DNA from: an uncultured bacterium
GTDB taxonomy: Bacteria; Hinthialibacterota; Hinthialibacteria; Hinthialibacterales; Hinthialibacteraceae
Assembly: GCA_964449065.1 (NCBI GenBank)
Contig: CAYVAZ010000004.1
Span: 1 to 44,620, forward strand
Direction of reading: 5' to 3'
DNA: 44,620 nucleotides
Positions 16,185 through 34,688 of the stretch are shown here, piece after piece. Made by a program: the position numbers and the translations under genes. Each line of letters starts with the position of its first letter. The stretch's first letter is position 1. The notes beneath the pieces are model-generated. The model searched no databases. It saw only the letters and a program-made list of their open reading frames with translations, and had not been told where the DNA came from.

Positions 16185-16284
16185 NNNNNNNNNNNNNNNN
16201 NNNNNNNNNNNNNNNNNNNNNNNNNNNNNNNNNNNNNNNNNNNNNNNNNNNNNNNNNNNNNNNNNNNNNNNNNNNNNNNNNNNN
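16185..16284. other. Assembly gap (100 N)
   Basis: Run of N. Confidence 1.
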
Positions 16285-16303
16285 AAGCCATTTGAAATTG
16301 AGA

Positions 16304-16320
16304 TTGGTACTCATATTGCT
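16304..16320 (+). promoter_or_regulatory. Sigma54 -24/-12 promoter of the cyanate operon
   Basis: TTGGTACTCATATTGCT = GG-N10-GC, about 50 bp before the ATG. Confidence 0.75.
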
Positions 16321-16370
16321 CTCTTTTCGGCTATTCGAAATAAACCAATCTGCCCAACAAGGAGAGGCCT

Positions 16371-17831
16371 ATGAGTCTGTTTAAAGATCCCTTTGATCCC
16401 AACGTAAACATTTGGAATGAGTGTGGAGAGACCGGCGTCTCGGATGACACGCAAGCCGATGCGCCTGCCCGTGAATTTATCGACATGGTGCAATCTCCAA
16501 AAGAAAACGAAACGCAAGAGTTTTTGGAAGACCGTGAACTGAACCGAAAATGCTCCGGCTCGGTACTGCAACGGATGATGGAGAGCACGGTTCTGCAAAG
16601 CATGTTTAAAACCGATCAAAACCGCCGGCGCTTTTTAAAGGCCGTGGGTGCCGGCGCGGCCTATTCCGCCATCAGTTCCATCGTGCCGTTCAATCAGTTG
16701 CAGGCGATGGTGGAAGATGCCAAAAAGAATATTGAAAAGAAGGAACTCAAAGTGGGCTTTGTTCCCATTACGTGTGCCACACCGATTATCGGCGGCCGCG
16801 CGTTAGGGTTCTTTGAAAAGTATGGGCTGAAGGTGGATATTGTCAAAACGGCAGGCTGGGCGGTCGCGCGCGACAAATGCATGAATGGTGAATACGATGC
16901 CTCTCACTTGCTTGCCCCAATGCCGGCGGCAATGTCGCTTGGATTGGGGTCCGCTTCTCAAGATTGGCGCATGGTGACCAACGTGAACACCAACGGCCAG
17001 GCAATTGTATTGGCGAACAAGCATAAGGATAAAAACGACCCGAAACTTTGGAAAGGGTTTAAATTCGGCGTTCCATTCGAATACTCGATGCACAACCTGC
17101 TGCTGCGTTTGTATGTCGCCGAACACGGCATCGATCCCGATAAAGACATTCAAATCCGCGTGATTCCACCGCCCGAAATGGTTGCCAACCTGCGCGCCGA
17201 AAACGTAGACGGTTACTTAGCGCCGGATCCATTCAACCAACGCGCGGTATATGATGGCGTCGGGTTTATCCACAAATTAACCAAAGACATTTGGGATCAG
17301 CACCCATGTTGCTGCTTTGCCATCAGCCAAAAGTTCATCGATGAAAATCCCAACACGTTCATCGTTCTCCTTACCTCTATCTTGGATTCGACCAACACCG
17401 TTGAATTGATGGAAAACCGCGCCGTATTCGCGGAAGCCATGGCCCCCCGGAACTACCTCAACCAGCCGGAAGCGGTTTTGAAACAAATTCTCACCGGGGT
17501 GTATCCGGACGGACTGGGCAATATCCGTAAAGTGCCGGACCGCATTTCCTTTATGCCCTATCCAACGCAATCCATGGGAGTGTGGATTCTATCGCAGATG
17601 AAGCGGTGGGATTACATCAAAGACGATATCAACTACAAAACGATTTCCGATCAAATCTTTTTATCGACCGAAGCGGAAAAAGCGATGGTCTCCATGTCGG
17701 AAGCCAACAAAAACGTAAAATGGTCAGACATTCCGCAAGAGAAATATCCAGAGTATGACGTGTATGGCAAGAAATTCGACCCCGATAATATCGAATCGTA
17801 TCTTGATTCGTTTGCCATTAAACGTTCCTAG
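16371..17831 (+). CDS. cynA: CmpA/NrtA-family ABC substrate-binding protein, probably for cyanate
   Basis: GFVPITCATP, PFEYSMHN, APDPFNQRA and HPCC motifs; internal twin-Arg RRRFLK; in an operon with cyanase. Confidence 0.85.
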   Translation: MSLFKDPFDPNVNIWNECGETGVSDDTQADAPAREFIDMVQSPKENETQEFLEDRELNRKCSGSVLQRMMESTVLQSMFKTDQNRRRFLKAVGAGAAYSAISSIVPFNQLQAMVEDAKKNIEKKELKVGFVPITCATPIIGGRALGFFEKYGLKVDIVKTAGWAVARDKCMNGEYDASHLLAPMPAAMSLGLGSASQDWRMVTNVNTNGQAIVLANKHKDKNDPKLWKGFKFGVPFEYSMHNLLLRLYVAEHGIDPDKDIQIRVIPPPEMVANLRAENVDGYLAPDPFNQRAVYDGVGFIHKLTKDIWDQHPCCCFAISQKFIDENPNTFIVLLTSILDSTNTVELMENRAVFAEAMAPRNYLNQPEAVLKQILTGVYPDGLGNIRKVPDRISFMPYPTQSMGVWILSQMKRWDYIKDDINYKTISDQIFLSTEAEKAMVSMSEANKNVKWSDIPQEKYPEYDVYGKKFDPDNIESYLDSFAIKRS

Positions 17832-17935
17832 AGCGTTTTAGAGTTGGATAGACAGAATCTTTTGTTCCCCCCTTATTGGGGGGTAGAGGGATCAAAGACG
17901 ATCTCTTTCAATCTACGCAAACCTGAATTGCTCTA
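17829..17935. mobile_element. MITE-like element family 1, copy 2, carrying a CCCCCC/GGGGGG hairpin
   Basis: Ends match 117-145 and 199-222; length 107 bp versus 106 bp. Confidence 0.7.
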
Positions 17936-17965
17936 ACGGAATTTCAAAACTCAAATCATTAATCA

Positions 17966-17992
17966 GGGTGGCGGTGTAACACACCGCCACCC
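17966..17992. promoter_or_regulatory. Perfect 12-bp stem-loop before the permease gene
   Basis: GGGTGGCGGTGT-AAC-ACACCGCCACCC. Confidence 0.6.
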
Positions 17993-18000
17993 AAGGGAAA

Positions 18001-19005
18001 TTGATCTTGATCACCAAAATAAACTTACAAGCAGGAATTCTGTCTATTGTAATATTTGTCGTCTTCGTGATGATCTGGCATATCCTCACCGCCAAAACAT
18101 CATTGGATGCCGACAGCACAAACATCAAACCGGAACAGGTAACCGAACTCACGGAAATGGGGATGGCGGAGAATGATATCGAAATTTACGCGGAAACCGG
18201 ATTGGACTTTGATCAGATCAAACAAATTGCCGGTCTCGGTCTAAGTTACGATGACATTCAAATGGCAGGCGGGATTGAATCGTTCGGCTTTACGACCGGC
18301 GGTGCCGCCGAAGAAGCGGATACCGGCTTTCCACATCCCGCCCAAGTTTTGGCCCGCTCGTATGAATTATTAAAAGACCCGTTTTATGACAGGGGCCCGA
18401 ATGATAAGGGGATCGGCATTCAATTGTATTACTCGATCATCCGGGTGGGAATCGGATTTGGACTGGCGGTTTTAATTGCCGTACCCATCGGGTTTTTGGT
18501 GGGGATGTCTCCCATCGTCAATTTGGCTCTCATGCCGTTTATTCAGATTTTAAAGCCCATCTCGCCGCTGGCTTGGCTGCCCTTGGCTTTGTTTGCCTTG
18601 AAGGATTCCGAGATGGCATCCATTTTTGTCATCTTCATCTGTTCCATTTGGCCAATGCTGATCAACACAGCATTTGGCGTGGCCAGTGTGAACAAAGACT
18701 ACATCAACATCGCCCGCACGTTGGAACTCAGCAGTCTGCGGACCGCCTTTACGGTGATTCTTCCCGCCGCCGCTCCCACCATTTTCACCGGGATGAAAAT
18801 CTCGCTGGGGATCGCCTGGCTGGTTATCGTCGCGGCTGAAATGCTGGTCGGCGGGATCGGCATGGGGTACTTCGTCTGGAACGAGTGGAACGGTTTAAAC
18901 CTGGACACCATGATTTACGCGATCCTTGTGATTGGCATTGTTGGCTTGATCTTAGACCAGATGATCGGTCTATGCATTCGGATGGTTGATTATCAAGAGT
19001 TATAA
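18001..19005 (+). CDS. cynB: Nitrate/cyanate ABC permease (NtrB family)
   Basis: PFYDRGPNDKGIG, LKPISPLAWLP and WLVIVAAEM motifs; exact start uncertain. Confidence 0.85.
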   Translation: MILITKINLQAGILSIVIFVVFVMIWHILTAKTSLDADSTNIKPEQVTELTEMGMAENDIEIYAETGLDFDQIKQIAGLGLSYDDIQMAGGIESFGFTTGGAAEEADTGFPHPAQVLARSYELLKDPFYDRGPNDKGIGIQLYYSIIRVGIGFGLAVLIAVPIGFLVGMSPIVNLALMPFIQILKPISPLAWLPLALFALKDSEMASIFVIFICSIWPMLINTAFGVASVNKDYINIARTLELSSLRTAFTVILPAAAPTIFTGMKISLGIAWLVIVAAEMLVGGIGMGYFVWNEWNGLNLDTMIYAILVIGIVGLILDQMIGLCIRMVDYQEL

Positions 19006-19019
19006 GTTGGGATACCACC

Positions 19020-19934
19020 ATGAAACCATTTATCAAAACAGAACTGTTAACCAAATCCTTCCCGCCCGAAAAACGGGGACAACCGGATTTTGTCGTATTT
19101 GAACATGTCAATATGTATATTGAAAAAGGGGAATACATCACCTGTATCGGCCATTCCGGCTGCGGAAAATCTACCATCCTCAATATTCTGGCCGGACTGG
19201 AACCCGCGTCTTCCGGCGGTGCGTTTATGAATGGCAATGAAATCGTCAAAACCAGCATCGAACGGGCTGTTGTCTTTCAAAACCACAGTTTGCTGCCCTG
19301 GCAATCGGCGATTAAAAATGTCATGTTTGCCGTACGCGCCAAGTGGCCGGGATGGTCCAAAGAAAAAATATACAAGCATAGTATGGATTATTTAGAGATG
19401 GTTGGGCTGGACAAAAGCAAGGATAAAAAACCCTACCAACTCTCCGGGGGAATGAGGCAGCGTGTGGGTATCGCCCGCGCATTCGCGATTCAATCCGATT
19501 TGCTGCTTATGGATGAACCCTTCGGCGCATTGGATGCGTTAACCCGCGGCGTGATTCAAGAAGAACTGATAAAAATTTGGAGCCGGTATCAACAAACGGT
19601 ATTTATGATCACGCATGATGTGGATGAGGCGATCCTGCTCTCAGACCGCATCTTCTTAATGACCAACGGTCCCCGCGCCAACATCGCGGAAGCGGTGGTT
19701 GTTGATATCCCCAGACCCCGAGACCGAAGCACCATTGTGCATCACCCCAACTACTACAAAATTCGAAATTACTTAGTCGATTTCTTAGTGGAACGTTCGC
19801 ATGAATTATCCGGTTCAAATCCAACCATTATAAAAATGAAAGAAAAAACAACCCCCGACTTTCAATTTCCACCCAATATTAATCCCAGTATCGAAAACAA
19901 CGAAACCCAAAATGTCGTACGGGTTAATTCATAA
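19020..19934 (+). CDS. cynD: Nitrate/cyanate ABC ATP-binding protein
   Basis: GHSGCGKST, LSGGMRQR and DEPFGALD motifs. Confidence 0.9.
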   Translation: MKPFIKTELLTKSFPPEKRGQPDFVVFEHVNMYIEKGEYITCIGHSGCGKSTILNILAGLEPASSGGAFMNGNEIVKTSIERAVVFQNHSLLPWQSAIKNVMFAVRAKWPGWSKEKIYKHSMDYLEMVGLDKSKDKKPYQLSGGMRQRVGIARAFAIQSDLLLMDEPFGALDALTRGVIQEELIKIWSRYQQTVFMITHDVDEAILLSDRIFLMTNGPRANIAEAVVVDIPRPRDRSTIVHHPNYYKIRNYLVDFLVERSHELSGSNPTIIKMKEKTTPDFQFPPNINPSIENNETQNVVRVNS

Positions 19935-19954
19935 TTGTTACGAAAGGAACGACC

Positions 19955-20398
19955 ATGAAAAAAATTGAGATGACAGAAGCCATTCTTGCCGCCAAAGCCG
20001 GGAAAGGATGCGGCTGGGCCGACATAGCCGGCGCGGTGGGCTTATCCGAAGTGTTTATCACTTCGGTTTGTTTGGGGCAAAACAGCGTGAGTGCGGAGGA
20101 TGCCGAAAAATTATCCTCCTATTTAGGTCTGCCGTCAGAGGTTACCGCGGCCTTGCAGGTCTGCCCGTTGAAGGCGGAAGGAGTGGATTTGGTTTCCAAA
20201 GACCCTCTGATCTACCGTTTCTTTGAAATAGCTTATGTATACGGTTCCAGCCTGAAAGAAGTGATACATGAGAAATTCGGAGACGGCATCATGAGCGCGA
20301 TTGACTTCACCATGGATGTGGATAAAGAAGAAGACCCAAAAGGAGACCGGGTCGTGATTACAATGAACGGGAAGTTTTTGCCCTACAAGAAATGGTAA
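19955..20398 (+). CDS. cynS: Cyanase (cyanate hydratase)
   Basis: DPLIYRFFE, EKFGDGIMSAIDF and GKFLPYKKW motifs. Confidence 0.97.
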   Translation: MKKIEMTEAILAAKAGKGCGWADIAGAVGLSEVFITSVCLGQNSVSAEDAEKLSSYLGLPSEVTAALQVCPLKAEGVDLVSKDPLIYRFFEIAYVYGSSLKEVIHEKFGDGIMSAIDFTMDVDKEEDPKGDRVVITMNGKFLPYKKW

Positions 20399-21330: not shown

Positions 21331-21440
21331 GTGCAGCAAGGATGCCTGCACCACAACGATTTCCAGGCTGAATTGTAGTGCAGGCGACCTGCCTGCTAAT
21401 GTTGTATTGTAGTACAAGCGTTCCGCCTGCTAATGTTGTT
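21331..21440. repeat. Cluster of GTRGTGCAGGC-type REPs: one inverted copy plus two tandem 34-bp copies
   Basis: 21373-21406 and 21407-21440 are direct copies; 21331-21356 is an inverted relative. Confidence 0.7.
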
Positions 21441-21626: not shown

Positions 21627-23390
21627 TCAATATACATCGCGTTGATAGCGTTTTTCCGCCTGCAAGCGTTGGATATAATCGGCGGCTTCTTCTTCACTCA
21701 TGCCGCCCGCGGTTTGCGCGATGGTGTGGAGCGCTTCATGGACATCCTTGGCCATCCGTTTTGCATCTCCACATACATAGAAATAGCCCCCTTCTTCCAG
21801 CCATTCATAGATTTCCCGCGCGCGCTCGACCATACGGTTTTGCACATACAGCTTTTGATCTTGATCCCGCGAAAACGCGGTATCCATTTTGGTGAGGACG
21901 CCTTCATTCATCATACGCTCAATTTCTTCGCGGTAGAGAAAGTCAGAATCTTGATGAGGATTGCCGAAGAACAACCAGTTCTTTCCGGGATTGCCGGACA
22001 TGCGTCTCTCTTCTAAAAAGGCACGGAACGGGGCAATCCCGGTTCCCGGCCCCACCATGATGATAGGTTTTTCGTGATCCTCAGGCAGACCAAAGTTTTT
22101 GGATGGAGAGATATATACCGGGACAGTTGAGCCTTCTTCGACCAAGCGGGCTAAGAAGCCGGAGCATACACCGTGATGCAAGCGGCCTTCGGTTTCATAT
22201 TTCACGACACCAACAGTAATATGCACTTCTTCCGGATGAGCGTTGGGACTGGATGAGATCGAATACAAACGGGGTTGCAGCGGTTTGAGCTGTTCGATCC
22301 ATTCTTCGGCCGTTGTGTCAACGGTTGGAAGTTCGTTCAGTACATCCAATATTTCCTTGCCCCAAATATACTCGTTGTATTTTTCTTTGTTTTCCGCTTG
22401 CAGCAATTCTTCTACCCACTCGCTGCCGGTTTTGTCATGCAGCCATTGCATTAGGCTTTTGGTTGGTTTGGATACATCCAACTTGTGGATCAACGCTTCC
22501 CGCAGGGGCATACTGCCTTCCTTGGGGATGGTGACCGCCGCGCTGCCGTCTAAATTTAACACATTGATTAACGCGTCCACTTCATCCGGACAGTTTTGGG
22601 GAACCACGCCCAAGGCATCGCCCACTTTGTATTCCATTCCCGATCCTTGCAGCGAAATTTCCACATGGCGGGTATCTTTCTCCGAACCCTCCGCGTTGAG
22701 TTTTACCACACGTTTGATGGTTGCCGGAAACGGATTGCGTTTGGAATAGCCTTCCTCTTCGGCCGCCGCTTTTCCGTTAGTGGAAGCCGCGGCCGCAAGC
22801 ACGTTTTGATCTTCGGATTGTATCGCCGGGATAACACCGGCAGCCCATTCTTCATACACATCATCATAGTCCACATCGCAATCCATGCGTTGAAAAACCC
22901 GTTGGGCGCCGAGTTGTTCCAAGCGGGTATCGACATCTTTGCCGAATTGACAGAACTGTTCGTAGTTGGTGTCACCCAATGCCAAGACGGAATATTCCAG
23001 GTGGGAAAGTGATGGGGCCGAATCGGCGGAAAGTTCTTCCCAAAAACGTTGCGCGTTATCAGGCGGGTCTCCATCGCCATAGGTGCTGGTGATGATGAGA
23101 ACTTTTTTATCGGATTTTAGATTGTTGATGGGATATTCCGCCATGTCATACACCGTCGGGGCGAATCCGTTTTTGCCGGCTTGTTTGGAAAGCATTTTCG
23201 CCAAGGCCTCCGCGTTGCCGGTTTGCGAACCAAACAGGATCGACAACGGCGTGAGCGACGCGGATGCCGCCTGCCCAATTTGGGGTGCTTCCTGCCGGGA
23301 AAACACACCGGCCAAAAAGCCGTTTAGCCACGCGCGCTGTTCCGGCGAGAACGGCGCGTGGTCCGGTATGGATGGGATCTGATTCGCCAT
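21627..23390 (-). CDS. CysJ-like diflavin (FMN/FAD) NADPH oxidoreductase, probable electron donor for nitrate/nitrite reduction
   Basis: GSQTGNAE, STYGDGDPPDN, PRLYSISS, GPGTGIAPF, YVCGDA and RYQRDVY motifs. Confidence 0.92.
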   Translation of the reverse strand: MANQIPSIPDHAPFSPEQRAWLNGFLAGVFSRQEAPQIGQAASASLTPLSILFGSQTGNAEALAKMLSKQAGKNGFAPTVYDMAEYPINNLKSDKKVLIITSTYGDGDPPDNAQRFWEELSADSAPSLSHLEYSVLALGDTNYEQFCQFGKDVDTRLEQLGAQRVFQRMDCDVDYDDVYEEWAAGVIPAIQSEDQNVLAAAASTNGKAAAEEEGYSKRNPFPATIKRVVKLNAEGSEKDTRHVEISLQGSGMEYKVGDALGVVPQNCPDEVDALINVLNLDGSAAVTIPKEGSMPLREALIHKLDVSKPTKSLMQWLHDKTGSEWVEELLQAENKEKYNEYIWGKEILDVLNELPTVDTTAEEWIEQLKPLQPRLYSISSSPNAHPEEVHITVGVVKYETEGRLHHGVCSGFLARLVEEGSTVPVYISPSKNFGLPEDHEKPIIMVGPGTGIAPFRAFLEERRMSGNPGKNWLFFGNPHQDSDFLYREEIERMMNEGVLTKMDTAFSRDQDQKLYVQNRMVERAREIYEWLEEGGYFYVCGDAKRMAKDVHEALHTIAQTAGGMSEEEAADYIQRLQAEKRYQRDVY

Positions 23391-23401: not shown

Positions 23402-26400
23402 TTAATTCGAAAAGAGTTCTTGCAGTTCACCGGCGTCATGACGGCGGGTAAACGCCGCAAACGATTCGCCTTTGTTTCGGTTTTCGAGGTACACATTCAG
23501 CACCTGTTCAAGCAATTTCGGGACGCGGGAAAATGGGATGCCTTTAAATACCTCTTGGGCGATGCCTTGGTCTTGATCGACTCCACCACCGAAGACGATG
23601 TTGTAGCCTTCGACCTGTTCGCCGTTTTCGGTAACCTTGGTGCCAAGCAAGCCGATATCGCCGCAATAGTGCTGCGCGCACGAATGCGGGCAGCCGGTAA
23701 GATGAATGTTGATGGGTTGATCGAGATTCACGCGCCCGTCTAGGTAACTCGCTAGTTCGACCGCTTGGCCTTTGGTGTTTGTCGATGAAAACTTGCAGCC
23801 GGTATTGCCCGTGCAGGCAATGAAGCCGCCGGTAATCGCGCTGGCTTTGATATCGAAGCCGGCGTTTTTTATCATCCGTTCAACGGATTGCAAATGGGTT
23901 TCATTTATATTGGGGATAATCACGTTCTGCCAAACGGTCAGCCGCAACTCACCCGAACCGTATGCTTCCGCCGTTTCGGCAAGGATTCGCATTTGTTTGG
24001 TGGTCATATGGCCAACTGGAACCGCCACACCGGCATAATTCAATCCCGCTTGTTTCTGTTTAAAGATTCCGATATGTCCGTGACGGATGGTGTGTCTGTT
24101 GGGGTTACAATCTTCAACAGGAAACCTTCTCAGTTCGAACGAAAGTTTCTTTTGCACCTCTTCGATATACTTCTCAAGACCCCACTCATCCAAAAGGTAC
24201 TTCAAGCGCGCCTTTTTGCGGTTCATCCGGTTCCCGTTTTCGATGAAGACTTTCAGAATCGCTACCGCGACCGAAATACACTCATTGGGGTGAATAAGAA
24301 TACCGGAATCGCGCGCGAAATCGCCATGGCCGGTGATGCCCCCGAGTTCGACGCGGAAATAGACACCGGGTTTAACCGCATGACCTTCGCCAACCCGTAC
24401 CGCTACAAATGCGATGTCGTTGGTATCGGATACCACGCTGATTGAACCGCCGCTGTCAAACGCGATGTTGAATTTCCGCGGCAAACCATACAACTCACGG
24501 TGATTGAGAATATAGTGATGCATGGCTTTGGCCAGCGGCCGCACGTCATAGACCTCACTGGTGTCAATCCCGGACGTGGGCGTTGCGGTGATATTGCGAA
24601 TGTTATCCGCACCGGAACCTTTTGAAGTTAAGCCGATATCCGATAGTTTCATCAAAACATTGACTGTATCGTTTGGTTGAATTTCTCGGATTTGAATATT
24701 GGCGCGGGTGGTGATACTGGCATACTTCCCGCCCCAGCGTTCGGCGATATCCGCCAAGCCGCGCATCTGGTTGGTGGTGAGTATTCCGGCTGGAATACGG
24801 CAGCGCAGCATGAAAGCCTCTTGCGCGGGGGATACATAAAACAAGCCGTGAAACTTAAAACGAAAAACATCGCCGCCTTCGGGAAACTTGTTTTCTTCCG
24901 CGTGATGCATGATTTTTCCCCATACATCCAAGCCGTTCAGTTCATGCTTTACTTTCTCTTCCTTGCTCAAATCTTCGAGAGGCGTGCCGTATACCGTGTC
25001 CGGTTCTTGCGTGCCGCTTTGGGTTTCCGAACCCGGCAACGATATCCCTTGAATGCGCGAACCGGCGAATAAGCCTTCTAAAAATTCTTTTTGTTCTTTC
25101 GTAAAGGATTCATCTTTGGTGTTGGCATCGGCAATCATATTGGTACTCCCTTTTTGCGGATTGGATTCCTGTTTCGATAATTTCACCGCGCTGAGTTTGA
25201 ATTCGGGCTGCCAAGATACGGGATCCACTTCATCGGAAGTCGCCGCGTTGACGGCATGATCCCCGTCGTTCCAATGAAAGGGGGCAAAGCAAACATCCGG
25301 GGCGATACGGTCTTCGATCTTTGCCGGATAAGACGCAATCCCTTGTTCGGATTCGATCTGAACAATATCGCCTTCTTGAATGCCGTATTGTTCCGCGGTG
25401 CGGGGATGAATCTGCAAAAATGGACCGGGATTAAGCCGGTTGAGTGTGGCGATGGTTCCGGTTTTGGTGCGGGTATGCCACTGGTGAGGCAGTCTTCCGT
25501 TGGTGAATGATAGTGTGTATTTCTCATTCGGCTCATTGGGGGAAGGCAAATCATCGTGCACACAAAATTTCGCTTTGCCGGAATCGGTGGCAAATTTCAT
25601 GATCGTGGGATTGTAGGTCTGATACCGGCGTTTGCTGATACATTCGCTATCGGATGTTGACGGCCATGAAACCGCTTCATTGCGCAGGCGTTCGTAACTC
25701 ATACCATCCAATACATACCCGGTTTTGGGATTGGCGGTTCGCTTAATTTCTTCAAACACGTCCGAAGTGGAGGCAAACGGAAACGCGTCGGTGAATCCCA
25801 TGCGCTTGGCAACTTCGGCAATCATTTTCCAATCGGCCATGGCATCGCCAGGCGGATCAACCGCGTTCTGCATGAGCGTGATCCGGCGTTCGGAATTCGT
25901 CATGGTACCCTCGGCTTCCGCCCACAGCGCGCCGGGCAGCAGAATGTCGGCATATTCGGTGGTCTCCGTGGGATGATAGGCATCTTGCACGATGACCAAC
26001 TCAGCGTTTTGCAATCCCGCGATGACATGCTTGCGGTTGGCAACGCTGGCTACCGGATTGGTCGCGATGATCCACACCGCTTTTACGCGGCCTTCTTCCA
26101 GCGCTTTAAATAACGAAACCGTATGCAATCCTGGTTTGGGTGAGATGGTACCTGCTTCAATTCCCCATACCTCTTCGATGAACCGTCTATCTTCTTCTTC
26201 GTTCACTGCGCGTTGACCTGGAAGTGTGTTGCAAAGATAGCCCACTTCGCGGCCGCCCATCGCGTTGGGTTGCCCTGTAAGTGAAAACGGACCTGCCCCG
26301 TGAATGCCGATGGCTCCGGTGGCCAGATGCAGATTGCATAGCGCGTTGGTATTGGCGGTGCCTTTGGTGCTTTGGTTAAGCCCCATGGTCCAAAAACTCA

Positions 26401-27265
26401 TCCAGCGTTTGGTGGAGGCGATCCATTGCGCGGCGGTATGGATTTGCTCCACTGGAATACCGGTCCGTTCCGAGACACGTTCCGGTGTATATTGCGCCAT
26501 GTGTTGTTTGGCTTCTTCCCAGCCTTCGCTATTATTCTCAATAAACTCTTCATCAACCGCGTTGTCCTTGATCAGAAGATGAAGCAATCCGTTCAACAAA
26601 GTTAAATCGGTACCAGGTTTGATTTGCATGAAGAGACCGGCTTTATCGGCGGTCGCGGTCTTGCGGGGGTCAACAACGATCAACTTGGCGTTGGCTTTCT
26701 TGACCCGGTCCATCATGCGTAAAAACAAAATCGGATGGCAGTCCGCCATGTTGGAACCGGTGACAAAAAACAATTCCGCATGCTCAATGTCTTCGTAACA
26801 TCCCGGCGGGGCATCGGCGCCGAAAGACGTTTTGTAGCCGCTGGCCGCGCTGGCCATGCAAAGGCGCGAGTTGGAATCAATATTATTGGTCCCGATGAAC
26901 CCTTTGCACAGTTTGGTGGCAAGATACTGCGCTTCGGTCGACATCTGGCCGGAGACATACATCGCGACCGCATCTTTGCCATGCTCTCTAATGATTCGGC
27001 TGAGTTGTTCAGCGGTTTGCTGTAACGCGTTGTCTACCGGGATGGTTTTAAAGTCTTCCTTGCGCGCGGTACGCGACATGGCATGTTTCAAACGGGTATC
27101 AACATCAATGGCTTGATGGGCAGTCAATCCTTTGGTGCACAGTTTGCCGAAGTTGGCGGGATGATCGGCATCCCCTGCAACGTGAACCACACGATTCTCT
27201 TCCACGGATAACATCATCCCGCATCCGACACCGCAATATGGGCATACTGATTTAACTTGCTTCAT
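23402..27265 (-). CDS. Fused assimilatory nitrate reductase (NasA/NarB-type Mo-bisPGD) and siroheme nitrite reductase (NirA)
   Basis: CPYCGVGC..LCTKG, NSRLCMASA, TGQPNAMGGRE and PEFK in aa 1-~700; LPRKFNIAF, CTGNTGC and TGCPHSC in aa 710-1287. Confidence 0.92.
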   Translation of the reverse strand: MKQVKSVCPYCGVGCGMMLSVEENRVVHVAGDADHPANFGKLCTKGLTAHQAIDVDTRLKHAMSRTARKEDFKTIPVDNALQQTAEQLSRIIREHGKDAVAMYVSGQMSTEAQYLATKLCKGFIGTNNIDSNSRLCMASAASGYKTSFGADAPPGCYEDIEHAELFFVTGSNMADCHPILFLRMMDRVKKANAKLIVVDPRKTATADKAGLFMQIKPGTDLTLLNGLLHLLIKDNAVDEEFIENNSEGWEEAKQHMAQYTPERVSERTGIPVEQIHTAAQWIASTKRWMSFWTMGLNQSTKGTANTNALCNLHLATGAIGIHGAGPFSLTGQPNAMGGREVGYLCNTLPGQRAVNEEEDRRFIEEVWGIEAGTISPKPGLHTVSLFKALEEGRVKAVWIIATNPVASVANRKHVIAGLQNAELVIVQDAYHPTETTEYADILLPGALWAEAEGTMTNSERRITLMQNAVDPPGDAMADWKMIAEVAKRMGFTDAFPFASTSDVFEEIKRTANPKTGYVLDGMSYERLRNEAVSWPSTSDSECISKRRYQTYNPTIMKFATDSGKAKFCVHDDLPSPNEPNEKYTLSFTNGRLPHQWHTRTKTGTIATLNRLNPGPFLQIHPRTAEQYGIQEGDIVQIESEQGIASYPAKIEDRIAPDVCFAPFHWNDGDHAVNAATSDEVDPVSWQPEFKLSAVKLSKQESNPQKGSTNMIADANTKDESFTKEQKEFLEGLFAGSRIQGISLPGSETQSGTQEPDTVYGTPLEDLSKEEKVKHELNGLDVWGKIMHHAEENKFPEGGDVFRFKFHGLFYVSPAQEAFMLRCRIPAGILTTNQMRGLADIAERWGGKYASITTRANIQIREIQPNDTVNVLMKLSDIGLTSKGSGADNIRNITATPTSGIDTSEVYDVRPLAKAMHHYILNHRELYGLPRKFNIAFDSGGSISVVSDTNDIAFVAVRVGEGHAVKPGVYFRVELGGITGHGDFARDSGILIHPNECISVAVAILKVFIENGNRMNRKKARLKYLLDEWGLEKYIEEVQKKLSFELRRFPVEDCNPNRHTIRHGHIGIFKQKQAGLNYAGVAVPVGHMTTKQMRILAETAEAYGSGELRLTVWQNVIIPNINETHLQSVERMIKNAGFDIKASAITGGFIACTGNTGCKFSSTNTKGQAVELASYLDGRVNLDQPINIHLTGCPHSCAQHYCGDIGLLGTKVTENGEQVEGYNIVFGGGVDQDQGIAQEVFKGIPFSRVPKLLEQVLNVYLENRNKGESFAAFTRRHDAGELQELFSN

Positions 27266-27371: not shown

Positions 27372-28166
27372 CTAATTTTCATTCGGCATATCTTTTTGCT
27401 GATACAAAAACTTTAAAACTTCGGCGCGGTATTGGTTGTAATTTGGATTGTCGGCCAACTCCACACGGTTGCGGGGGCGCGGCAGATCGATATCCAAAAT
27501 TTGCGCGATGGTAGCCGCCGGGCCGTTGCTCATCATGACAATGCGGTCAGACAACAAGACGGCTTCGTCAACATCGTGTGTGATCATGATGACGGTGGAT
27601 TCTTGTTGTCCATGTATTTCCAAAATCGAATCCTGCAAGCTGGCGCGGGTAAGGGCGTCCAGTGCCCCCATCGGCTCATCCAACAAAAGAACCTTGGGTT
27701 TCATCGCCAACGCGCGGGCAATGCCGACACGCTGCTTCATCCCGCCGGATATCTCCGCGGGGCGTTTGTCTTTCGCGTGCTCCATGTGCACGAGTTCCAA
27801 ATTGTGCAGAATCCAATCATGGCGATCTTTCTTGTTCATCTCACCGCGAAACACCTTATCAACCGCCAACTGCACATTGCCATAGACGGTAAACCAAGGC
27901 AGCAGTGAATGGTTTTGAAACACCACCGCGCGGTCGGGGCCGGGTTCATACACTTCTTTCTCTTCCAAAATCACGCCGCCGCCGGTGGCGCGGTTTAATC
28001 CCGCAATGATGTTCAACAGGGTTGATTTGCCGCAGCCGGAATGGCCTATGATTGAGATGAATTCATGCTGCCCGATATTCAAGTCGATATCGCGAATGGC
28101 GCAAAAGGGGCCTTTATTGGTCGGGAACGACATTTCCACATTTTCAACAGTTAAAAATCCATGCAT
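27372..28166 (-). CDS. nrtD: Nitrate ABC ATP-binding protein
   Basis: GHSGCGKST, ISGGMKQR and DEPMGALD motifs. Confidence 0.9.
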   Translation of the reverse strand: MHGFLTVENVEMSFPTNKGPFCAIRDIDLNIGQHEFISIIGHSGCGKSTLLNIIAGLNRATGGGVILEEKEVYEPGPDRAVVFQNHSLLPWFTVYGNVQLAVDKVFRGEMNKKDRHDWILHNLELVHMEHAKDKRPAEISGGMKQRVGIARALAMKPKVLLLDEPMGALDALTRASLQDSILEIHGQQESTVIMITHDVDEAVLLSDRIVMMSNGPAATIAQILDIDLPRPRNRVELADNPNYNQYRAEVLKFLYQQKDMPNEN

Positions 28167-28177: not shown

Positions 28178-29308
28178 TTACCGGACTTCCAAGTTCGGTT
28201 CGTAACTGGCGAATTTTTGCAGTGAGATCATGACGCGGTCGAGCATAAAACCGATGATACCGATGGTAAACACGGCCACCATGATTTGCGCCAAGGTTTG
28301 GCTGCTGCCGTTTTGAAACATATCCCACACAAACTTACCGAGGCCGGGGTTTTGCGCGAGCATCTCGGCGGCAATGAGCACCATCCACCCGATACTCAGC
28401 GACAGGCGCAATCCGGTGAAGATATACGGCAATGCCGCGGGAATCACAATTTTAAAGGTTTTTTCAAACCACCCGAGTTTTAACACTTTCGCCACGTTGA
28501 GATGGTCTTGATCCATATTTACGACACCGTTGGCGGTATTGATGAGCGTGGGCCAAAGCGAACACAACGCGACCACAATCGCCGAACTTAAAAACGCTTT
28601 TTCAAACATCGGTTCTTCGGGGTTGTACCACGCGCTCACCAAGATCATAACAATCGGCAGCCACGCGAGCGGAGACACCGGTTTAAATATTTGAATCAAG
28701 GGATTAATCGAATGGTAAACGGTTTGACTCATCCCGCAGATCAACCCCATAGGCACGGCAATCACGGAAGCGATCAGAAACCCAAAAAAGACGGTATACA
28801 AACTGGTGAATATTTGATCGATAAAGGTATCTTTCCCCGCGTACGCGCGGTCTTTCCACTCTTTATCCGGAAACCGTTCCAGCATCTTCGCCTTAATGGC
28901 CGCTTGTTTGGCATAAAACTCTTTTTCTTTTTCGCCTTCTTGAACATATTCATCCCACAACGCTTTGGCCTCTTGCGCGACTTGAATCGGGCCGGGCAAG
29001 GTTCCGGTACGCACAACCGCGTTTTTGGCCACAATCTGCCAAACCACCAAAAACAAGAAGAACGCGATCAAGGGCAGCAGATATGCCCGGGTGATGATGG
29101 TGAAGTTTTCTTGCACATGATATCCGGCAAACAAGCACAAAAAGGGACTGAGCCAGCTCAGACCGGTTTGATCCAAGCGTGTTAACAGCAGATCAAACGC
29201 GGGCTTGTTGTTCTTCGGCGTTTCATTTCCCGGTTGATCAGCAGAAGCCATGCGCTCTAAATACTCCTTCCGGTTTGCGGTATAGGCTTCAATGGATTTT
29301 TGCAGCAT
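28178..29308 (-). CDS. nrtB: Nitrate ABC permease
   Basis: FKPVSPLAWLP and WMVLIAAEMLAQNPGLGKFVWD motifs. Confidence 0.9.
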   Translation of the reverse strand: MLQKSIEAYTANRKEYLERMASADQPGNETPKNNKPAFDLLLTRLDQTGLSWLSPFLCLFAGYHVQENFTIITRAYLLPLIAFFLFLVVWQIVAKNAVVRTGTLPGPIQVAQEAKALWDEYVQEGEKEKEFYAKQAAIKAKMLERFPDKEWKDRAYAGKDTFIDQIFTSLYTVFFGFLIASVIAVPMGLICGMSQTVYHSINPLIQIFKPVSPLAWLPIVMILVSAWYNPEEPMFEKAFLSSAIVVALCSLWPTLINTANGVVNMDQDHLNVAKVLKLGWFEKTFKIVIPAALPYIFTGLRLSLSIGWMVLIAAEMLAQNPGLGKFVWDMFQNGSSQTLAQIMVAVFTIGIIGFMLDRVMISLQKFASYEPNLEVR

Positions 29309-29336: not shown

Positions 29337-29378
29337 TCATTTCATTCAATCATTCAATCAATCAATCATTCATTCATT
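29337..29378. repeat. (TCAW)n microsatellite overlapping the nrtA stop
   Basis: tcatttcattcaatcattcaatcaatcaatcattcattcatt. Confidence 0.7.
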
Positions 29379-30728
29379 TTTGAGACCAACTGGAAACGAG
29401 TTAATGTATTCATTTGGCTTTTTGGCATCGAACACGATCCCGTCAATGAATCCGTTATCGGGCGCCTTATAGCCGCTGGTCTTGGGCAAATCGTCTTTGG
29501 TTAGAACCCCGTCGTCGATGAGTTCAACCGCGGCCTTACGCCATATACCGGGACGGTAAACCTCTTCGGCGGTCTTAAAGTACCAGTCATCCGGTTTGGG
29601 TTCATCAATCTGTCCCCAGCGGCGCATTTGGGTTAAAAACCAAATGCAATGAGAGTAAAAGGGATAGGTTGCGTCATAGCGGTAAAACACGTTGAAGTCG
29701 GGATAGTCGCGGACATCGCCTTTTTCAAATTCAAAGGTGCCGGTCATGCTGTTGGCGATCACTTCGGCATCCGCCCCGACATATTCACTGCGGGATAAAA
29801 TCTCAACCGCTTGTTTGCGGTTCTCAATACTTTCATCCAACCACTTGCCCGCGCGAATTAACGCTTTCACAACTGCAATGTGAGTGTTTGGATGTTGATC
29901 GTTCCATTCTTTGGTCACCCCGAATACTTTTTCCGGATTGTTTTTCCAAATGTCATAGTTGGTCGTCACCGGTACACCAATCCCTTTAAACACCGCTTGC
30001 TGGTTCCACGGTTCGCCCACGCAATAGCCTTGGATGGTTCCCTGCTCAAGAGTGGCCGGCATTTGCGGCGGCGGAGTGACAGAAAGTAATACATCCGCGT
30101 CGGTGGTTCCGGTCGTGTCCCCGCCTGTGTAATAGCCCGGGCTGATGCCGGATGCCGCCAGCCAGTAGCGGATTTCGTAGTTGTGCGTGGAAACCGGAAA
30201 CACCATCCCCATGCGTAGTGGATCACCCGCCACTTTAAACTCTTCCACAATCGGTTTGAGAGAATCAGCGGATATGGGATGCGGCGGTTTATCCTGCTGT
30301 AACTTGGGATCATTCTCCTGCATCTTCTCCCAAATTTCATTCGATACCGTGATCCCGTTGCCGTTTAAATCCATACTAAACGCCGTGATGATGTGTGCCT
30401 GCGAACCGATACCGACATACGCGCCGATGGGCTGCCCGGCCAGCATGTGGGCTCCATCCAACTCTCCACTGATGACACGGTCCAGCAGCACCTTCCAGTT
30501 CGCTTGCGCTTCCACTTCCACAAACAAACCTTCTTCGAGGAAATAGCCCAGCTCCTTCGCGATCACAATAGGCGCGCAATCGGTCAGTTTAATGAAGCCG
30601 AACTTCAAATCACTTTTTTCGACGTCCAATAAGTCCGCTTGCGTTGGGTATGTCAGAAATAAAAAAGAAAAGAATACAATTCCAATCTTTAACAAACACG
30701 GTTTATTTGTCCGCTTGGATGACCACAT
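29370..30728 (-). CDS. nrtA: Nitrate ABC substrate-binding protein
   Basis: [21 protein letters not shown] and [11 protein letters not shown] motifs; AGGAG SD 7 nt before ATG 30728. Confidence 0.92.
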
Positions 30729-30769
30729 AGCCATTCTCCTTTTTGTTTTAAGCAATCAAACTGAAAAGG

Positions 30770-30786: not shown

Positions 30787-31224
30787 TTTAAAGATAACGC
30801 ATATAAGGTTTTTGATTTTCAAGAGTTACAGTTTGTATAAATTTGTCATGACCGGCTTCATGAAGAGGCGGTTGATCAAAAATCAGCAACGATTTGCATT
30901 ACCGCGTATGAAGTCCAGCACTTTCCTATCCATGGTTTTTGACTGTACACAAACTTTCCTCATTCCATTCGCTTAATCTTTTCATTTCATTGTTGAATCT
31001 CTAACATAGTTTGTTCGAATATAAACCATAATTCATTCCTTATTACGATGGGATCCTCTCCCGTGGGTTCACTACTATGTTCCGCGTTTACGTTCGGATC
31101 ATTTCTTCTATCGCCGTGATTTCGGATTTAAATAGAATAAAACACATATTTTACATGCATCTTTACCGCTTCCGGCATCAGCAAAAACGAATTCAAACGT
31201 GTATAGAATTGGCAATAGCGTCTA

Positions 31225-31241
31225 TTGGAATCGAAATTGCT
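31225..31241 (+). promoter_or_regulatory. Sigma54 -24/-12 promoter of the flavoprotein/multiheme pair
   Basis: TTGGAATCGAAATTGCT = GG-N10-GC. Confidence 0.65.
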
Positions 31242-31253
31242 TATGCAGCCATC

Positions 31254-33245
31254 ATGATGAATATGCCGGAAACCGCAAATGTACATACCGCCGCAAAACG
31301 CCGAATGGTTATCGTCGGCAACGGCATGGTGAGCTATAAGCTGTGCGAACGCTTGGTTTTTTATGATGTTGCAAAGTTATATCAAATCGATGTGTTTGGC
31401 GAAGAACCCCGGCCCGCCTACGATCGGGTTCATCTCACGACATTGTTTCAAGACCGGTCCCCAAAAGATTTATTGCTGGCAGACAGCCAATGGTATCAAC
31501 AGCACGGCATTCAACTCCACACCAACATGCCGGTGGAAAAAATTGACCGCACCCGCAACGTAATCTTTACGGGTGGGAATCGAACCGTCCCGTATGACAT
31601 ATTAATCTTAGCGACAGGTTCGCATCCCTTTGTTCCCCCCTTTCCCGGAAACGACCGTAACGGTGTGTTTGTCTACCGCACGGTTGAAGATGTGCAAGTC
31701 ATTCAAGCCTACGCGTCAACCAAAAAACGGGTTGCGGTCCTAGGCGGTGGATTGTTGGGGCTGGAAGCCGCCAAGGCGCTGCGCGATATGGGATTGAAAA
31801 CCCACATTGTAGAGCGCGCGGATTTTTTAATGCCGCAACAGTTAGACAAATCGGGCGCGCGTTTATTGCAGCGCGGGATTGAAAAGTTGGGGATCAAAAT
31901 CTATACCGGACGCTCTACCAAAGCGATTGAACCGCATGAAGATGAACTGTTGCTGCGCTTTCAGGATGGCGACTGCTTGGCGGTGGATATGGTCGTAATC
32001 TCAGCCGGAATCCGCCCCCGCGATGAATTGGCGAAAGAATGCGGCTTGTTGTGCGGTACACACGGCGGAGTCATCGTTAATTCAGCCCTGCAATGTTCTG
32101 ATAAAAATATCCACGCCATCGGTGAGTGTGCTTGCTATGAAGGGGCTGTATATGGGTTAATCTCGCCCGGATACGAAATGGCGAATGTATTGGCCCAGCG
32201 TTTGGCCGGGGATTCGGCTGAATTTACGGGCGGTGATTCATCCGCCCGCTTAAAGCTTATGGGTGTGGAAGTCAGCCATTTAGGGGCAGGATTACAGCCC
32301 GGCGACTTCTACACATATCAAGATCAACATTCCTACCGACGCTGCGTGTTAGAGCATGGCCGCTTAATCGGCGCGATTGCGGTCGGAACTTGGAGCGAAT
32401 TGCCCCGCGTCCAAGAAGCCATTACCAACCATGAAGTAATTTCCCCACGATCCACAGAGCGGTTTACAAAAACAGGAAATCTATTTGTTGAGGACGAATC
32501 GCTTTCGTGGTTAGACCGCCTCCCCACTACAGCCCGTATATGCAATTGCATGAATGTTACCAAAGGAGAATTACTAACCGCTTATGCGGCCGGGTACACC
32601 TCTGCCGATACGCTTTCCGAATATACCGGGGCCTCCACGGTATGCGGTTCATGCCGCCCGCAACTTGAAGAGTTGGCAGGCAGCCAGTCTACGGTTTCCG
32701 CTAATGTATGGAGCAGCCGCGTGCTGTTGGGGATATCGCTGGTTTCATTGCTGATGGCGGCCGCGTTATTTTTGGCGCCGCCGGTACCGGTTTCTCAAAC
32801 CGTTCAATCCACACTGCATACGATTGAAATCTTGTGGCGGGATGGTTTTTATAAGCAACTCACCGGCTATACGATTTTATCGCTCTCCATCATCTCATTG
32901 ATCTTTTCACTTCGAAAACGGATTCGCTCGTTCTCGTTTGGTAAATACAATTATTGGCGAATTGTACACACTTCCGGCGGGCTGTTGGCTTTGATCATGA
33001 TTCCCGTGCATACCGGGTTTCACTGGGGCAGCAATTTAAATAGGTGGCTGCTTGTCAGTTTCATCTGTTTCGCGTTGATCGGAACGGTTGCCGGAATTTG
33101 CGCCGCGCTGGAAGTATCTCCGGCCGAAAAGATTAAGCAAACCGCGTTTCGGCTTCGGCCGTATTTGGTATACATCCATATTCTTTTGTTTTGGCCTGTT
33201 CCTATCTTACTCGCGTTTCATATCCTTAAAATTTATTACTATTAA
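31254..33245 (+). CDS. NirB-like FAD/NAD(P)H oxidoreductase with BFD-like [2Fe-2S] and a C-terminal di-heme-b-type membrane domain; no siroheme domain
   Basis: GNGMVS, GGGLLGLE and AIGEC; ICNC..CGSC; about 5 TM helices with two H-x13-H pairs; start set downstream of the sigma54 motif (31254-31263). Confidence 0.85.
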   Translation: MMNMPETANVHTAAKRRMVIVGNGMVSYKLCERLVFYDVAKLYQIDVFGEEPRPAYDRVHLTTLFQDRSPKDLLLADSQWYQQHGIQLHTNMPVEKIDRTRNVIFTGGNRTVPYDILILATGSHPFVPPFPGNDRNGVFVYRTVEDVQVIQAYASTKKRVAVLGGGLLGLEAAKALRDMGLKTHIVERADFLMPQQLDKSGARLLQRGIEKLGIKIYTGRSTKAIEPHEDELLLRFQDGDCLAVDMVVISAGIRPRDELAKECGLLCGTHGGVIVNSALQCSDKNIHAIGECACYEGAVYGLISPGYEMANVLAQRLAGDSAEFTGGDSSARLKLMGVEVSHLGAGLQPGDFYTYQDQHSYRRCVLEHGRLIGAIAVGTWSELPRVQEAITNHEVISPRSTERFTKTGNLFVEDESLSWLDRLPTTARICNCMNVTKGELLTAYAAGYTSADTLSEYTGASTVCGSCRPQLEELAGSQSTVSANVWSSRVLLGISLVSLLMAAALFLAPPVPVSQTVQSTLHTIEILWRDGFYKQLTGYTILSLSIISLIFSLRKRIRSFSFGKYNYWRIVHTSGGLLALIMIPVHTGFHWGSNLNRWLLVSFICFALIGTVAGICAALEVSPAEKIKQTAFRLRPYLVYIHILLFWPVPILLAFHILKIYYY

Positions 33246-33263
33246 AGGCTGCGTTTTTCCCGC

Positions 33264-34577
33264 ATGAAAACATCAAGCATTTGGATACTTTGGATATTGG
33301 CCACCCTGGCAGGAGGGGGGACGCTGGCAGTTTTGATGTTTTATGAAGTGCGGCATGATGTGTTTATGCCCGGCATGACCAGCGTGGGGCATTATCAAAT
33401 CGAACTGGCCTGCAACGAATGCCACACCCCGTTTATGGGAGTGAAGCAGGATTCTTGCTTAAAGTGCCACGAAAAAGAATTGAATGAGGCTCAGGATTCG
33501 CACCCGGAAAAAAAGTTTCGCGATCCGCGCAATGCCGACCGGGTTGCCAAGTTGGACGCGCGCTATTGCATTACCTGTCATCAAGAACATGTCCCGGACC
33601 GCACGCATGTCATGGGGGTGACTTTACCCACGGATTATTGCTACCACTGCCATCAAACCATCGCGGAAGAACGCCCCAGCCATGAAGGGATGGGCTTCAA
33701 TACCTGCGCGACAGCGGGCTGCCATAATTTTCACGACAACCGCGCGTTGTATGAAGACTTTTTGCTGAAACACGCCGATCAACCCGACTTGGTCCAGCCT
33801 GCCCGTATCCCATCAATCGTTCGCCAAATCTCCGAAGGCGGTTTTTTGGCAAAACAAGACGCGGATGTGCCAACCGAAATTGAAGTGGATGATATCGTCT
33901 ATCAACAATGGGAAAATGATATCCACGCGCAAGCCGGGATAAACTGTATGGATTGCCACAGCCAAACGCGCGGCGGTGAGTGGATTGCCGACCCGGACCA
34001 TACCGTATGCAAACAATGCCATGAATATCAAACCGAAGGCTTTCTGGCTGGAAGACACGGAATGAGGCTCGCGCAAGATATGTCTCCCATGCAGCCGCAT
34101 ATGGCGCGATTGCCCTTCAAAGAAACCGCCATGCACAAAACCATGGACTGCAACGCGTGCCACTCCGCGCACGATTACAATACCCAAACCGCGGCGGTTC
34201 ACGCCTGCCTAACCTGCCATGACGATCAACACAGCTTGGCGTTTGTCGATTCCCCCCACTACAAAACCTGGTTTGACGCGCGTACCACGGAAAATATCGA
34301 GTCAGGCGTATCCTGCGCGACTTGCCACATGCCGCGAACGGAAACCGCCATCGCTGGAGAAAAAAGCATTGCTGTACAGCACAATCAAAACGATAACCTG
34401 CGCCCGAATGAAAAAATGATCCGCAGCGTATGCCTGCATTGCCACGGGTTAGGATTTTCGATTGATGCATTGGCCGATCCCGCCTTGATCTTAAATAACT
34501 TTACCGGCAAGCCATCGATTCAAATTGATAGCATCGAAATGGCGGTCAAACGCGATCAAGAGTTAAGCAAAAACTAA
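33264..34577 (+). CDS. Membrane-anchored multiheme cytochrome c (10 CxxCH + 1 Cx4CH)
   Basis: Motifs counted in the translation; N-terminal TM/signal segment. Confidence 0.92.
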   Translation: MKTSSIWILWILATLAGGGTLAVLMFYEVRHDVFMPGMTSVGHYQIELACNECHTPFMGVKQDSCLKCHEKELNEAQDSHPEKKFRDPRNADRVAKLDARYCITCHQEHVPDRTHVMGVTLPTDYCYHCHQTIAEERPSHEGMGFNTCATAGCHNFHDNRALYEDFLLKHADQPDLVQPARIPSIVRQISEGGFLAKQDADVPTEIEVDDIVYQQWENDIHAQAGINCMDCHSQTRGGEWIADPDHTVCKQCHEYQTEGFLAGRHGMRLAQDMSPMQPHMARLPFKETAMHKTMDCNACHSAHDYNTQTAAVHACLTCHDDQHSLAFVDSPHYKTWFDARTTENIESGVSCATCHMPRTETAIAGEKSIAVQHNQNDNLRPNEKMIRSVCLHCHGLGFSIDALADPALILNNFTGKPSIQIDSIEMAVKRDQELSKN

Positions 34578-34688
34578 ACCGGCAAGTGTTCATATCCTTG
34601 CCGGTTGCATGGATATGAACAAAACCATCCAAAAATATCAACAGAAATCATCCCGCAACTGCATCAATCCGGTTTGAATATCTACTGA

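Follow-up and report, generated by a model that had tools for sequence, protein, structure and literature searches.

A conserved fusion of an assimilatory nitrate reductase with a NirA-family nitrite reductase, and the CysJ-like flavoprotein that likely feeds it

Nitrate and nitrite reductases are usually treated as separate enzymes with separate electron donors. A 44,620-nucleotide stretch of DNA from an uncultured bacterium of the Hinthialibacteraceae (GenBank assembly GCA_964449065.1, contig CAYVAZ010000004.1, positions 1 to 44,620; hereafter the window) raises the question of whether both activities can be carried by one polypeptide, nasA-nirA, and, if so, how its two sites are supplied with electrons. 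The original prediction, made from the letters alone, had described a single uninterrupted frame of 1287 residues that holds a complete nitrate reductase and a siroheme NirA, and had suggested nitrite channelling for a full eight-electron reduction within one chain. The present analysis confirms that a molybdenum-bis(pyranopterin guanine dinucleotide) (Mo-bisPGD) nitrate reductase of the assimilatory type (residues 1-698) is fused with a NirA-family nitrite reductase (residues 756-1287). We consider it probable that this conserved natural fusion converts nitrate to ammonium at two separate sites, with electrons from an adjacent CysJ-like NADPH flavoprotein and with a predicted helix as the tether.

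The minus-strand frame is open throughout (Table 1), and both halves announced for it are present, with intact metal ligands. Along the frame, Pfam profiles follow each other as Molybdop_Fe4S4 (1-53), Molybdopterin (58-488), Molydop_binding (585-691), two copies of NIR_SIR_ferr and two of NIR_SIR. The closest match of the nitrate reductase (NasA) module in the Protein Data Bank (PDB) is the NapA of D. desulfuricans (1.6e-138). Alignment with this enzyme and with related fusions, the core clade described below, places the [4Fe-4S] motif CxxCxxxC...C at C8, C11, C15 and C43, followed by K45, and the Mo ligand at C136, followed by M137; in formate dehydrogenases, His takes the place of this Met. 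G331 to R339 of the funnel motif GQPNAMGGRE (331-340) also align with NapA, and both C136-M137 and GQPNA..R are invariant in the 7 of 7 rows that cover them. The NirA module is matched over residues 717-1286 by NCBIfam NF007126 (PRK09567, NirA family) with 853.8 bits for a cut-off of 523 (model positions 3-588 of 595), and its closest PDB match is tobacco nitrite reductase (1.9e-74). Its siroheme-[4Fe-4S] cysteines C1151, C1157, C1192 and C1196 and the distal residues R890, K931 and N933 align with tobacco Nii3. The ligands of both halves are invariant in every row that covers them. The predicted model gives TM-scores to target of 0.84 with NapA and 0.83 with plant nitrite reductase; no chain among the PDB matches listed covers both halves.

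Table 1. Positions of the features discussed, in window coordinates.
Feature	Position	Strand	Basis
nasA-nirA fused open reading frame (P0001), 1287 aa, 141.9 kDa	23402..27265	minus	open frame, domain profiles
Nitrate reductase module, residues 1-698	25172..27265	minus	Pfam, PDB match, alignment
Inter-domain linker, residues 699-755 (about 57), predicted disordered but for one helix	25001..25171	minus	model, alignment
Shine-Dalgarno-like site, 7 nt upstream of an in-frame ATG	25146..25152	minus	best of the 32 ATGs in frame, -8.1 kcal/mol
Met710, in frame; possible internal start of a separate 63.8 kDa NirA including the helix	25136..25138	minus	conserved Met
Helix A (F721-G735), candidate docking or assembly helix	25061..25105	minus	profiles, alignment, model
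NirA module, residues 756-1287	23402..25000	minus	NF007126, PDB match, alignment
CysJ-like diflavin flavoprotein, stand-alone (flavodoxin, FAD and NAD(P) domains), 11 nt past the fusion stop, likely electron donor	21627..23390	minus	TIGR01931
Helix B, at the start of the CysJ-like protein; homologues are helix A and the E. coli CysJ helix with Tyr39/Phe40	23307..23351	minus	profile matches
Nitrate ABC transporter ATPase, NrtC/D type	27372..28166	minus	TIGR01184, over cut-off
ABC permease, NrtB-like	28178..29308	minus	TIGR01183 best match, under cut-off
NrtA/CmpA-like periplasmic binding protein	29370..30755	minus	Pfam NMT1_2

The absence of a leader peptide, with the first Cys already at residue 8, and the presence of nrt genes upstream identify the NasA module as assimilatory and cytoplasmic. 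The Pfam scan found no C-terminal BFD domain (Fer2_BFD, PF04324) in it, so it is not of the two-subunit NasA/NasC type. It also scores below the NCBIfam equivalog cut-offs for NasC (542.8 for 1100), halophile NasA (480.7 for 1000) and NapA (447.5 for 904): the module works like these enzymes but falls outside their curated families. Neither is the chain a NasA-CysJ bifunctional enzyme, since flavodoxin and FNR domains are absent from it and stand in the next gene.

Among the 35 genomes of the phylum that were examined, three carry the fusion: that of the window (G000), G012 (66% identity) and G003 (62%), which belong to three genera of one family and share 62-66% identity. The frame is free of stops in all three. 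By a single gene of the window, the PEP carboxylase, whose best named match is Ca. Hinthialibacter antarcticus (54%), the host likely falls in Hinthialibacterota. The fusion is placed between nitrate ABC transporter genes and cysJ; cysJ directly follows it in 3 of 3 genomes, and the NrtA/CmpA-like gene lies upstream also in G012 and, divergently oriented, in G003. As the fused chain has no NAD(P)H or flavin module, the eight electrons must come from another protein, and the chain does not suffice by itself. The adjacent CysJ-like flavoprotein, which exceeds the TIGR01931 cut-off (685.5 bits for 668.15), is the likely source. Siroheme synthase, MoaC and MoeA are encoded in G000. Scans for promoters and terminators found no more matches than in shuffled sequences.

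How might one donor serve two enzymes? The linker carries a helix (helix A) with the core-clade motif F-[ST]-x-E-Q-K-E-[FY]-L-x-G-L-x-A-G, and the CysJ-like protein begins with another (helix B). The two profiles match each other at 98%, and in a profile search of G000 they match solely the fusion and the CysJ-like protein at E <0.1. In the loci collected for comparison, helix A precedes NirA in 81, helix B precedes the flavodoxin domain in 73, and 70 have both; in Methylocystis MJC1, NirA and its CysJ-like neighbour carry helix A and helix B. Helix A also stands at the C-terminus of all five unfused NasAs of one clade within the sister group of the fusion (L068, L114, L115, L119, L164). In the linkers of NasA-CysJ fusions (n=65), helix B was scored in 57 and helix A in 34, always with A before B (34 of 34). 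Helix B matches residues 25-51 of E. coli CysJ (hhalign 89%, E 2.2e-6). This segment holds Tyr39 and Phe40 and falls inside a region of 52 residues that the accessible text of a report gives as necessary and sufficient for the CysJ octamer; these two are among the key residues and are required for its stability (10.64898/2026.04.08.717228). Helices A and B do not correspond one each to the two helices of the E. coli helix-turn-helix, as was first considered: both align to its second helix. A complex prediction with two copies of each helix and 69-row alignments reached a score of 0.14 for a mark of 0.32 with controls that did not fold, and so speaks neither for nor against binding. As side observations, in eleven loci of Luteolibacter/Akkermansiaceae type (L048, L066, L070, L078, L079, L082, L083, L091, L092, L096, L102) the gene after nirA encodes only helix B and a flavodoxin domain in about 200 residues, and helices A and B have diverged in parallel; the unfused NasA at L106:3895-6396 has helix A, then helix B and a stop at its end, and resembles a NasA-CysJ fusion minus its flavoprotein.

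In a diflavin reductase such as the E. coli sulfite reductase flavoprotein, electrons pass from NADPH to FAD and FMN, and a mobile flavodoxin domain hands them to an iron-sulfur acceptor. A [4Fe-4S] cluster serves Mo-bisPGD in the two-electron reduction of nitrate to nitrite, and a [4Fe-4S]-siroheme centre carries out the six-electron reduction of nitrite to ammonium. In the most likely scheme, nitrate would enter through the ABC transporter, the CysJ-like protein would move NADPH electrons via FAD and FMN, and its flavodoxin domain would feed both the [4Fe-4S] cluster of the Mo module (two electrons) and the siroheme cluster (six). The co-occurrence and homology of the helices suggest that the linker helix would tether the fusion to the CysJ-like protein. 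One shared helix could suffice for both enzymes, because unfused NasAs end, and unfused NirAs begin, with it; a single helix would then recruit NasA and NirA to one donor, with at least one NirA per NasA. One helix thus likely tethers both enzymes to the NADPH diflavin donor, as far as sequence comparison can tell. A bolder form, which we put forward tentatively and would not expect to hold in full, is that the full-length chain and extra free NirA would assemble through the shared helix on a CysJ-like oligomer as an NADPH-driven nitrate-to-ammonium machine. The helix would be a plug-and-socket tag behind the NasA-CysJ, NirA-CysJ, NasA-NirA and all-separate forms, and the large NirA family would be fed by flavoproteins, not ferredoxins.

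Several observations weigh against the helix-tethered, CysJ-fed arrangement. Helix A matches the E. coli CysJ segment only weakly (18%). It is missing from L073 and L089, which are close but more basal unfused NasAs, is reduced to a diverged helix-like tail in L041 and L112, and is absent from most unfused NasAs that neighbour a NirA-CysJ pair (seen in 0 of 41 distant ones). The E. coli hemoprotein CysI binds the flavoprotein through the FNR domain and not through the N-terminal helix, according to the accessible part of PMC11195156. The helix could drive self-association rather than CysJ binding, and a divergently transcribed NirB-like FAD protein (31077-33245) is a possible second donor. The NirA half is without the second distal Arg of the plant GLFHRR motif, with GLFYVSP instead; this Arg is also missing from common variants of the unfused NirA family. 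On the cofactor side, moaA was found in G012 and not in G000 or G003 (86-87% complete), and the mobA match in G000 is below cut-off; recA was not found in G000 either, a sign of assembly gaps.

The alternative that survives best takes up some of these points. Both halves would be active, the helix would self-associate or be a relic, electrons would come from free ferredoxin or flavodoxin or from the NirB-like FAD protein, and the fusion would just fix co-expression. The homo-octamer driven by the homologous E. coli segment (10.64898/2026.04.08.717228) agrees with this, as does the accessible description of Bradyrhizobium japonicum NirA as ferredoxin-dependent and Flp-independent (PMC4724949); the NirB-like FAD/BFD protein stands beside the cluster in G000, G012, L052 and L068. 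Nevertheless, the helix is found on donor and acceptors alike and is conserved within a divergent linker: among core-clade members, identity is 73-87% in the helix and 9-52% upstream of it. The A-then-B pair of the NasA-CysJ fusions also argues for docking. A BFD domain is the usual relay for NirB-like donors, and the present NasA has none; moreover, the NirB-like gene is absent from the 15.8 kb G003 contig. We therefore regard this alternative as unlikely, and docking on the CysJ-like protein as the better explanation.

A second question is whether the gene yields one product or two. A Met lies 10-20 residues ahead of the helix in 8 of 8 core clusters. The ATG in the linker is preceded by a Shine-Dalgarno (SD) motif with pairing energies of -8.1 (G000), -6.0 (G012) and -9.3 kcal/mol (G003), which rank 1 of 32, 3 of 32 and 2 of 21 among the in-frame ATGs. 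Energies this low are reached by about 1%, 5% and 0.3%, respectively, of the 2,628 internal ATGs in G000. The anti-SD used was a generic motif and not the organism's own, and the three genomes are kin. When codons were recoded synonymously with the amino acids fixed, the linker SD was equalled in 1.6% (G000), 26% (G012) and 0.2% (G003) of trials; the signal thus exceeds composition in two of three genomes and is within chance in G012. In all three, the linker ATG sits in weakly folded RNA and the 5' start of the fusion has no SD (0.4 to -0.5 kcal/mol). These features suggest that the gene may also yield free NirA from an internal start, and a possible alternative is that they are the relic of a former nirA start. 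An internal ribosome site would add free NirA and hence surplus nitrite-reducing capacity, a weaker part of the proposal.

Pushed further, the same features could mean that the locus acts mostly as two overlapping genes, with free NirA as main product and the full-length chain as a minor one. The SD-less 5' start, the SD-preceded linker ATG in weakly folded RNA and the recoding trials point in this direction. Conversely, one of the three signals is within chance, the genomes are related, the anti-SD is generic, and SD-less A/U-rich leaders are frequent among the genes of the window. Moreover, there is no other route to the nitrate reductase, so that the full-length chain must be made if the NasA half is used. 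We give little credence to a predominantly two-gene behaviour.

The linker also bears on the fate of nitrite. The segment originally quoted as the linker, KQESNPQKGSTN, does correspond to residues 698-709 but covers just its first part. Neither the shared helix nor the signal for an internal start figured in the original prediction. AlphaFold2 was run on residues 60-1259 with a 70-row alignment, without cofactors, partner or the two termini (1-59 and 1260-1287). It returned two confident modules (mean predicted local distance difference test score, pLDDT, 85) with a whole-model predicted TM-score (pTM) of 0.57. Residues 702-755 have pLDDT <50, with a single helix at 723-738. The model has no confident interface between the halves and, lacking these components, cannot exclude one. 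The linker is thus predicted to be a flexible tether that sets no fixed orientation of the halves. Direct channelling of nitrite between the Mo and siroheme sites would make sense where consecutive enzymes share a chain and their intermediate is toxic, and nitrate reductase-NirA fusions arose more than once. However, the linker is long, of low confidence and variable in length and sequence. Furthermore, in the part of PMC5976638 that is accessible, proximity or fusion alone makes no channel, though clusters can boost local capture, and in a reviewed case the fusion of two enzymes gave by itself no channelling. Because the two modules are joined by a flexible linker of about 57 residues, have no fixed orientation and, as in that case, are merely fused, the channelling originally suggested is unsupported and appears very unlikely. 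Nitrite would diffuse from one site to the other, with local clustering as the only likely aid.

A further reading makes the C-terminal half a sulfite reductase or CobG-type enzyme that couples nitrate reduction to another reaction. TIGR02435 (CobG) is also over its cut-off (358 for 234.8), and the partner is CysJ-like and the only CysJ found in G000, where cysI is located elsewhere. Yet the NirA-family score is far higher (853.8), plant nitrite reductases (1e-74) are much closer than CysI (1e-21) among solved relatives, and the neighbourhood is that of a nitrate transporter. The motif LPRKFN of the NirA half has Asn as in tobacco nitrite reductase, where E. coli CysI has Lys. This position plays a role in nitrite versus sulfite specificity, for which the literature search found no paper. 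Taken together, these data leave such a reading highly improbable. As a side observation, cysI (G000:C15:11076-12809) adjoins 2-oxoglutarate dehydrogenase-like genes with no cysJ there; since no other CysJ was found in G000, CysI may draw on that of the window or on a different donor.

How old and how frequent is the fusion? Of 654 long NirA relatives, the 120 listed include 9 in which NasA is joined directly to NirA (two of them partial), 5 giants of about 2,000 residues and 1 NasA-BFD-NirA; the NasA-NirA frame is open also in clusters P0004-P0009 and P0011. No fusion was found in the best 80 genome loci with the closest NirAs, nor a NasA-NirA in the best 80 metagenome loci, those whose NasA ends are most similar. 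In 66 of the latter 80, NasA is fused to flavodoxin/CysJ, the usual partner of this NasA clade, which agrees with the original remark on a known fusion to a CysJ-like flavoprotein. At 50% identity, the junction is spanned by two clusters in the top 150, and 25 listed of 847 plasmid rows contain no NasA-NirA fusion. A degenerate junction DNA pattern had no match in metagenome contigs, which gives no frequency. These counts come from best or listed matches and hence estimate no frequency, but the architecture is rare, and it was not found described in the open-access literature covered.

In the NirA tree, the eight core clusters (90% identity) make up a single clade (SH-aLRT 99), as do the six full-length ones, with matching shape, in the NasA tree (SH-aLRT 93); these are quick trees, built with every second unfused NirA row and one in five of the NasA-CysJ rows. 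The NasA halves of the clade are 58-75% identical to that of the window, which indicates a long inherited fusion. P0012 falls outside this clade, a forced grouping being rejected with the NirA (AU p 4e-7) and NasA halves (0.03, with a long-branch warning), and the giants and P0029 branch apart again from both. Since these three groups sit apart, nitrate reductase and NirA were likely joined at least three times. A one-base assembly error at the junction had first been suspected because the DNA there carries an SD-like GGGAG plus ATGA. That the open frame is such an error or a recently lost stop codon has a negligible probability: the resemblance of the seam to a coupled stop/start and the 87% completeness of the G000 assembly are outweighed by the same stop-free fusion over unrelated junction DNA in G012 and G003 and in five further clusters, by the one shape of both trees and by a contig of sequencing run X1 (depth about 4, from a single study that may have used the source sample) that spans 25005-25243 with 3 substitutions, 0 gaps and no stop. 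Among the pieces of run X2 listed, none crosses the junction, and run X3 contributed no piece.

Other fusions of the family were seen. The giants P0022, P0023, P0025, P0028 and P0030 (1,960-2,093 aa) combine nitrate reductase, two cNMP-binding domains, BFD, an FNR-like part and NirA; their clusters have up to 13 members, and fragments in one of these are named Methylocystis sp. As three giants score FAD and NAD domains, they may run from NAD(P)H to ammonium in one chain. P0020 and P0024 have this architecture minus nitrate reductase, and P0117 has a NirA piece followed by a NasA piece. In P0019, P0021, P0010, P0013, P0015 and P0026, the same NirA family is fused to CysJ, an MFS transporter, NirB-like flavoproteins or a formate/nitrite transporter domain; these are mostly single records, some maybe assembly read-throughs. 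Proteins >2253 aa that were searched gave 3 fungal sulfite reductases and no triple fusion, which is weak evidence.

Comparison with known systems shows where the architecture is new. NasA-CysJ, described by sequence in Proteobacteria and Actinobacteria (PMC4013037, accessible text) and annotated as 'bifunctional nitrate reductase/sulfite reductase flavoprotein subunit alpha', shares the NasA clade (52-59% identity), the lack of BFD, the helix family past the Mo domain and a CysJ-like donor. There, however, the donor is what NasA is joined to, and a different protein, with a NirB-like gene often next door, takes over the nitrite; here NasA is joined to NirA and the donor is separate. NirA-family proteins (PRK09567/NF007126) paired with sulfite-reductase-alpha-like flavoproteins in Verrucomicrobiota, Acidobacteriota and Methylocystis MJC1 are 50-60% identical to the NirA half and have helix A at the NirA N-terminus and helix B on the neighbour, but NirA is unfused in 80 of 80 best loci and the adjoining nitrate reductase is usually of a more distant clade (30-40%). 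The E. coli NADPH-sulfite reductase CysJ8-CysI4 likewise has a diflavin reductase serving a siroheme-[4Fe-4S] enzyme, with an N-terminal helix homologous to helix B. Unlike here, the accessible sources have the helix build a CysJ homo-octamer and CysI bind the FNR domain; CysI starts without such a helix, the substrate is sulfite, and there is no Mo enzyme. The Bradyrhizobium NasC-Flp/NirA system also has a Mo nitrate reductase and a NirA without NAD(P)H domains, with a globin nearby. According to the accessible text, knockouts show that it assimilates nitrate and nitrite, but its two genes lie ~2 Mb apart and separate donors were proposed (PMC4724949). Finally, D. desulfuricans NapA and tobacco or spinach ferredoxin-nitrite reductase, the closest sequence and fold matches of the halves, are separate proteins. 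The Bradyrhizobium NirA is presumably a PRK09567 member.

Searches of titles and abstract openings in the open-access literature, with subscription journals and supplements outside their scope, turned up no description of a nitrate reductase-NirA fusion, of its channelling or of a NirA-flavoprotein link. The accessible parts of PMC11237513, PMC6400420, PMC4013037, PMC9324843 and PMC13381448 describe other fusions or none, and that of PMC9324843, which names the likely phylum, mentions Nar and Nrf alone. Judging from sequence, the novelty would lie in the architecture, in the helix shared at the seam and in a possible second product, each half being a member of a known family or a close working analogue. 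This is a new architecture of a known pathway, and the chemistry is not new. As a natural, old and repeatedly evolved fusion, it offers a single-gene nitrate-to-ammonium route in which the effect of covalent linkage on nitrite leakage can be tested directly, as can the identity of the donor. As a Rosetta-stone protein, it groups NasA, NirA and the CysJ-like flavoprotein in one likely complex and gives a lead to what supplies NirA-family enzymes with electrons. A public database labels one fusion member just 'NirA family protein', so that its nitrate reductase half escapes metabolic surveys.

Other parts of the window hold minor features. Past cysJ, two identical promoter-like matches 34 nt apart (21372-21433, minus strand) suggest a short tandem repeat, in a region where run contigs have high depth and loose ends. 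A divergent conserved module on the plus strand (31077-36227) encodes the NirB-like FAD and BFD protein (31077-33245; no siroheme half, and a hydrophobic His-bearing tail at its end), a multiheme cytochrome with 10 CxxCH and one longer motif, a Tll0287-like protein, a monoheme cytochrome c and a single-domain globin. G012 and two Opitutaceae loci also have it next to nirA-cysJ (the module was seen at L022, L052 and L068), and it possibly serves NO handling or a second electron route. At 14518-20398, an alginate-export-type porin, an NrtA/B/D-like ABC transporter whose N-terminal leader is long, and a cyanase form a second nitrogen cluster, convergent on the nitrate operon and likely for cyanate uptake. 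Two tandem leucine-rich-repeat proteins of similar size follow a TPR protein at 429-2737 (minus strand).

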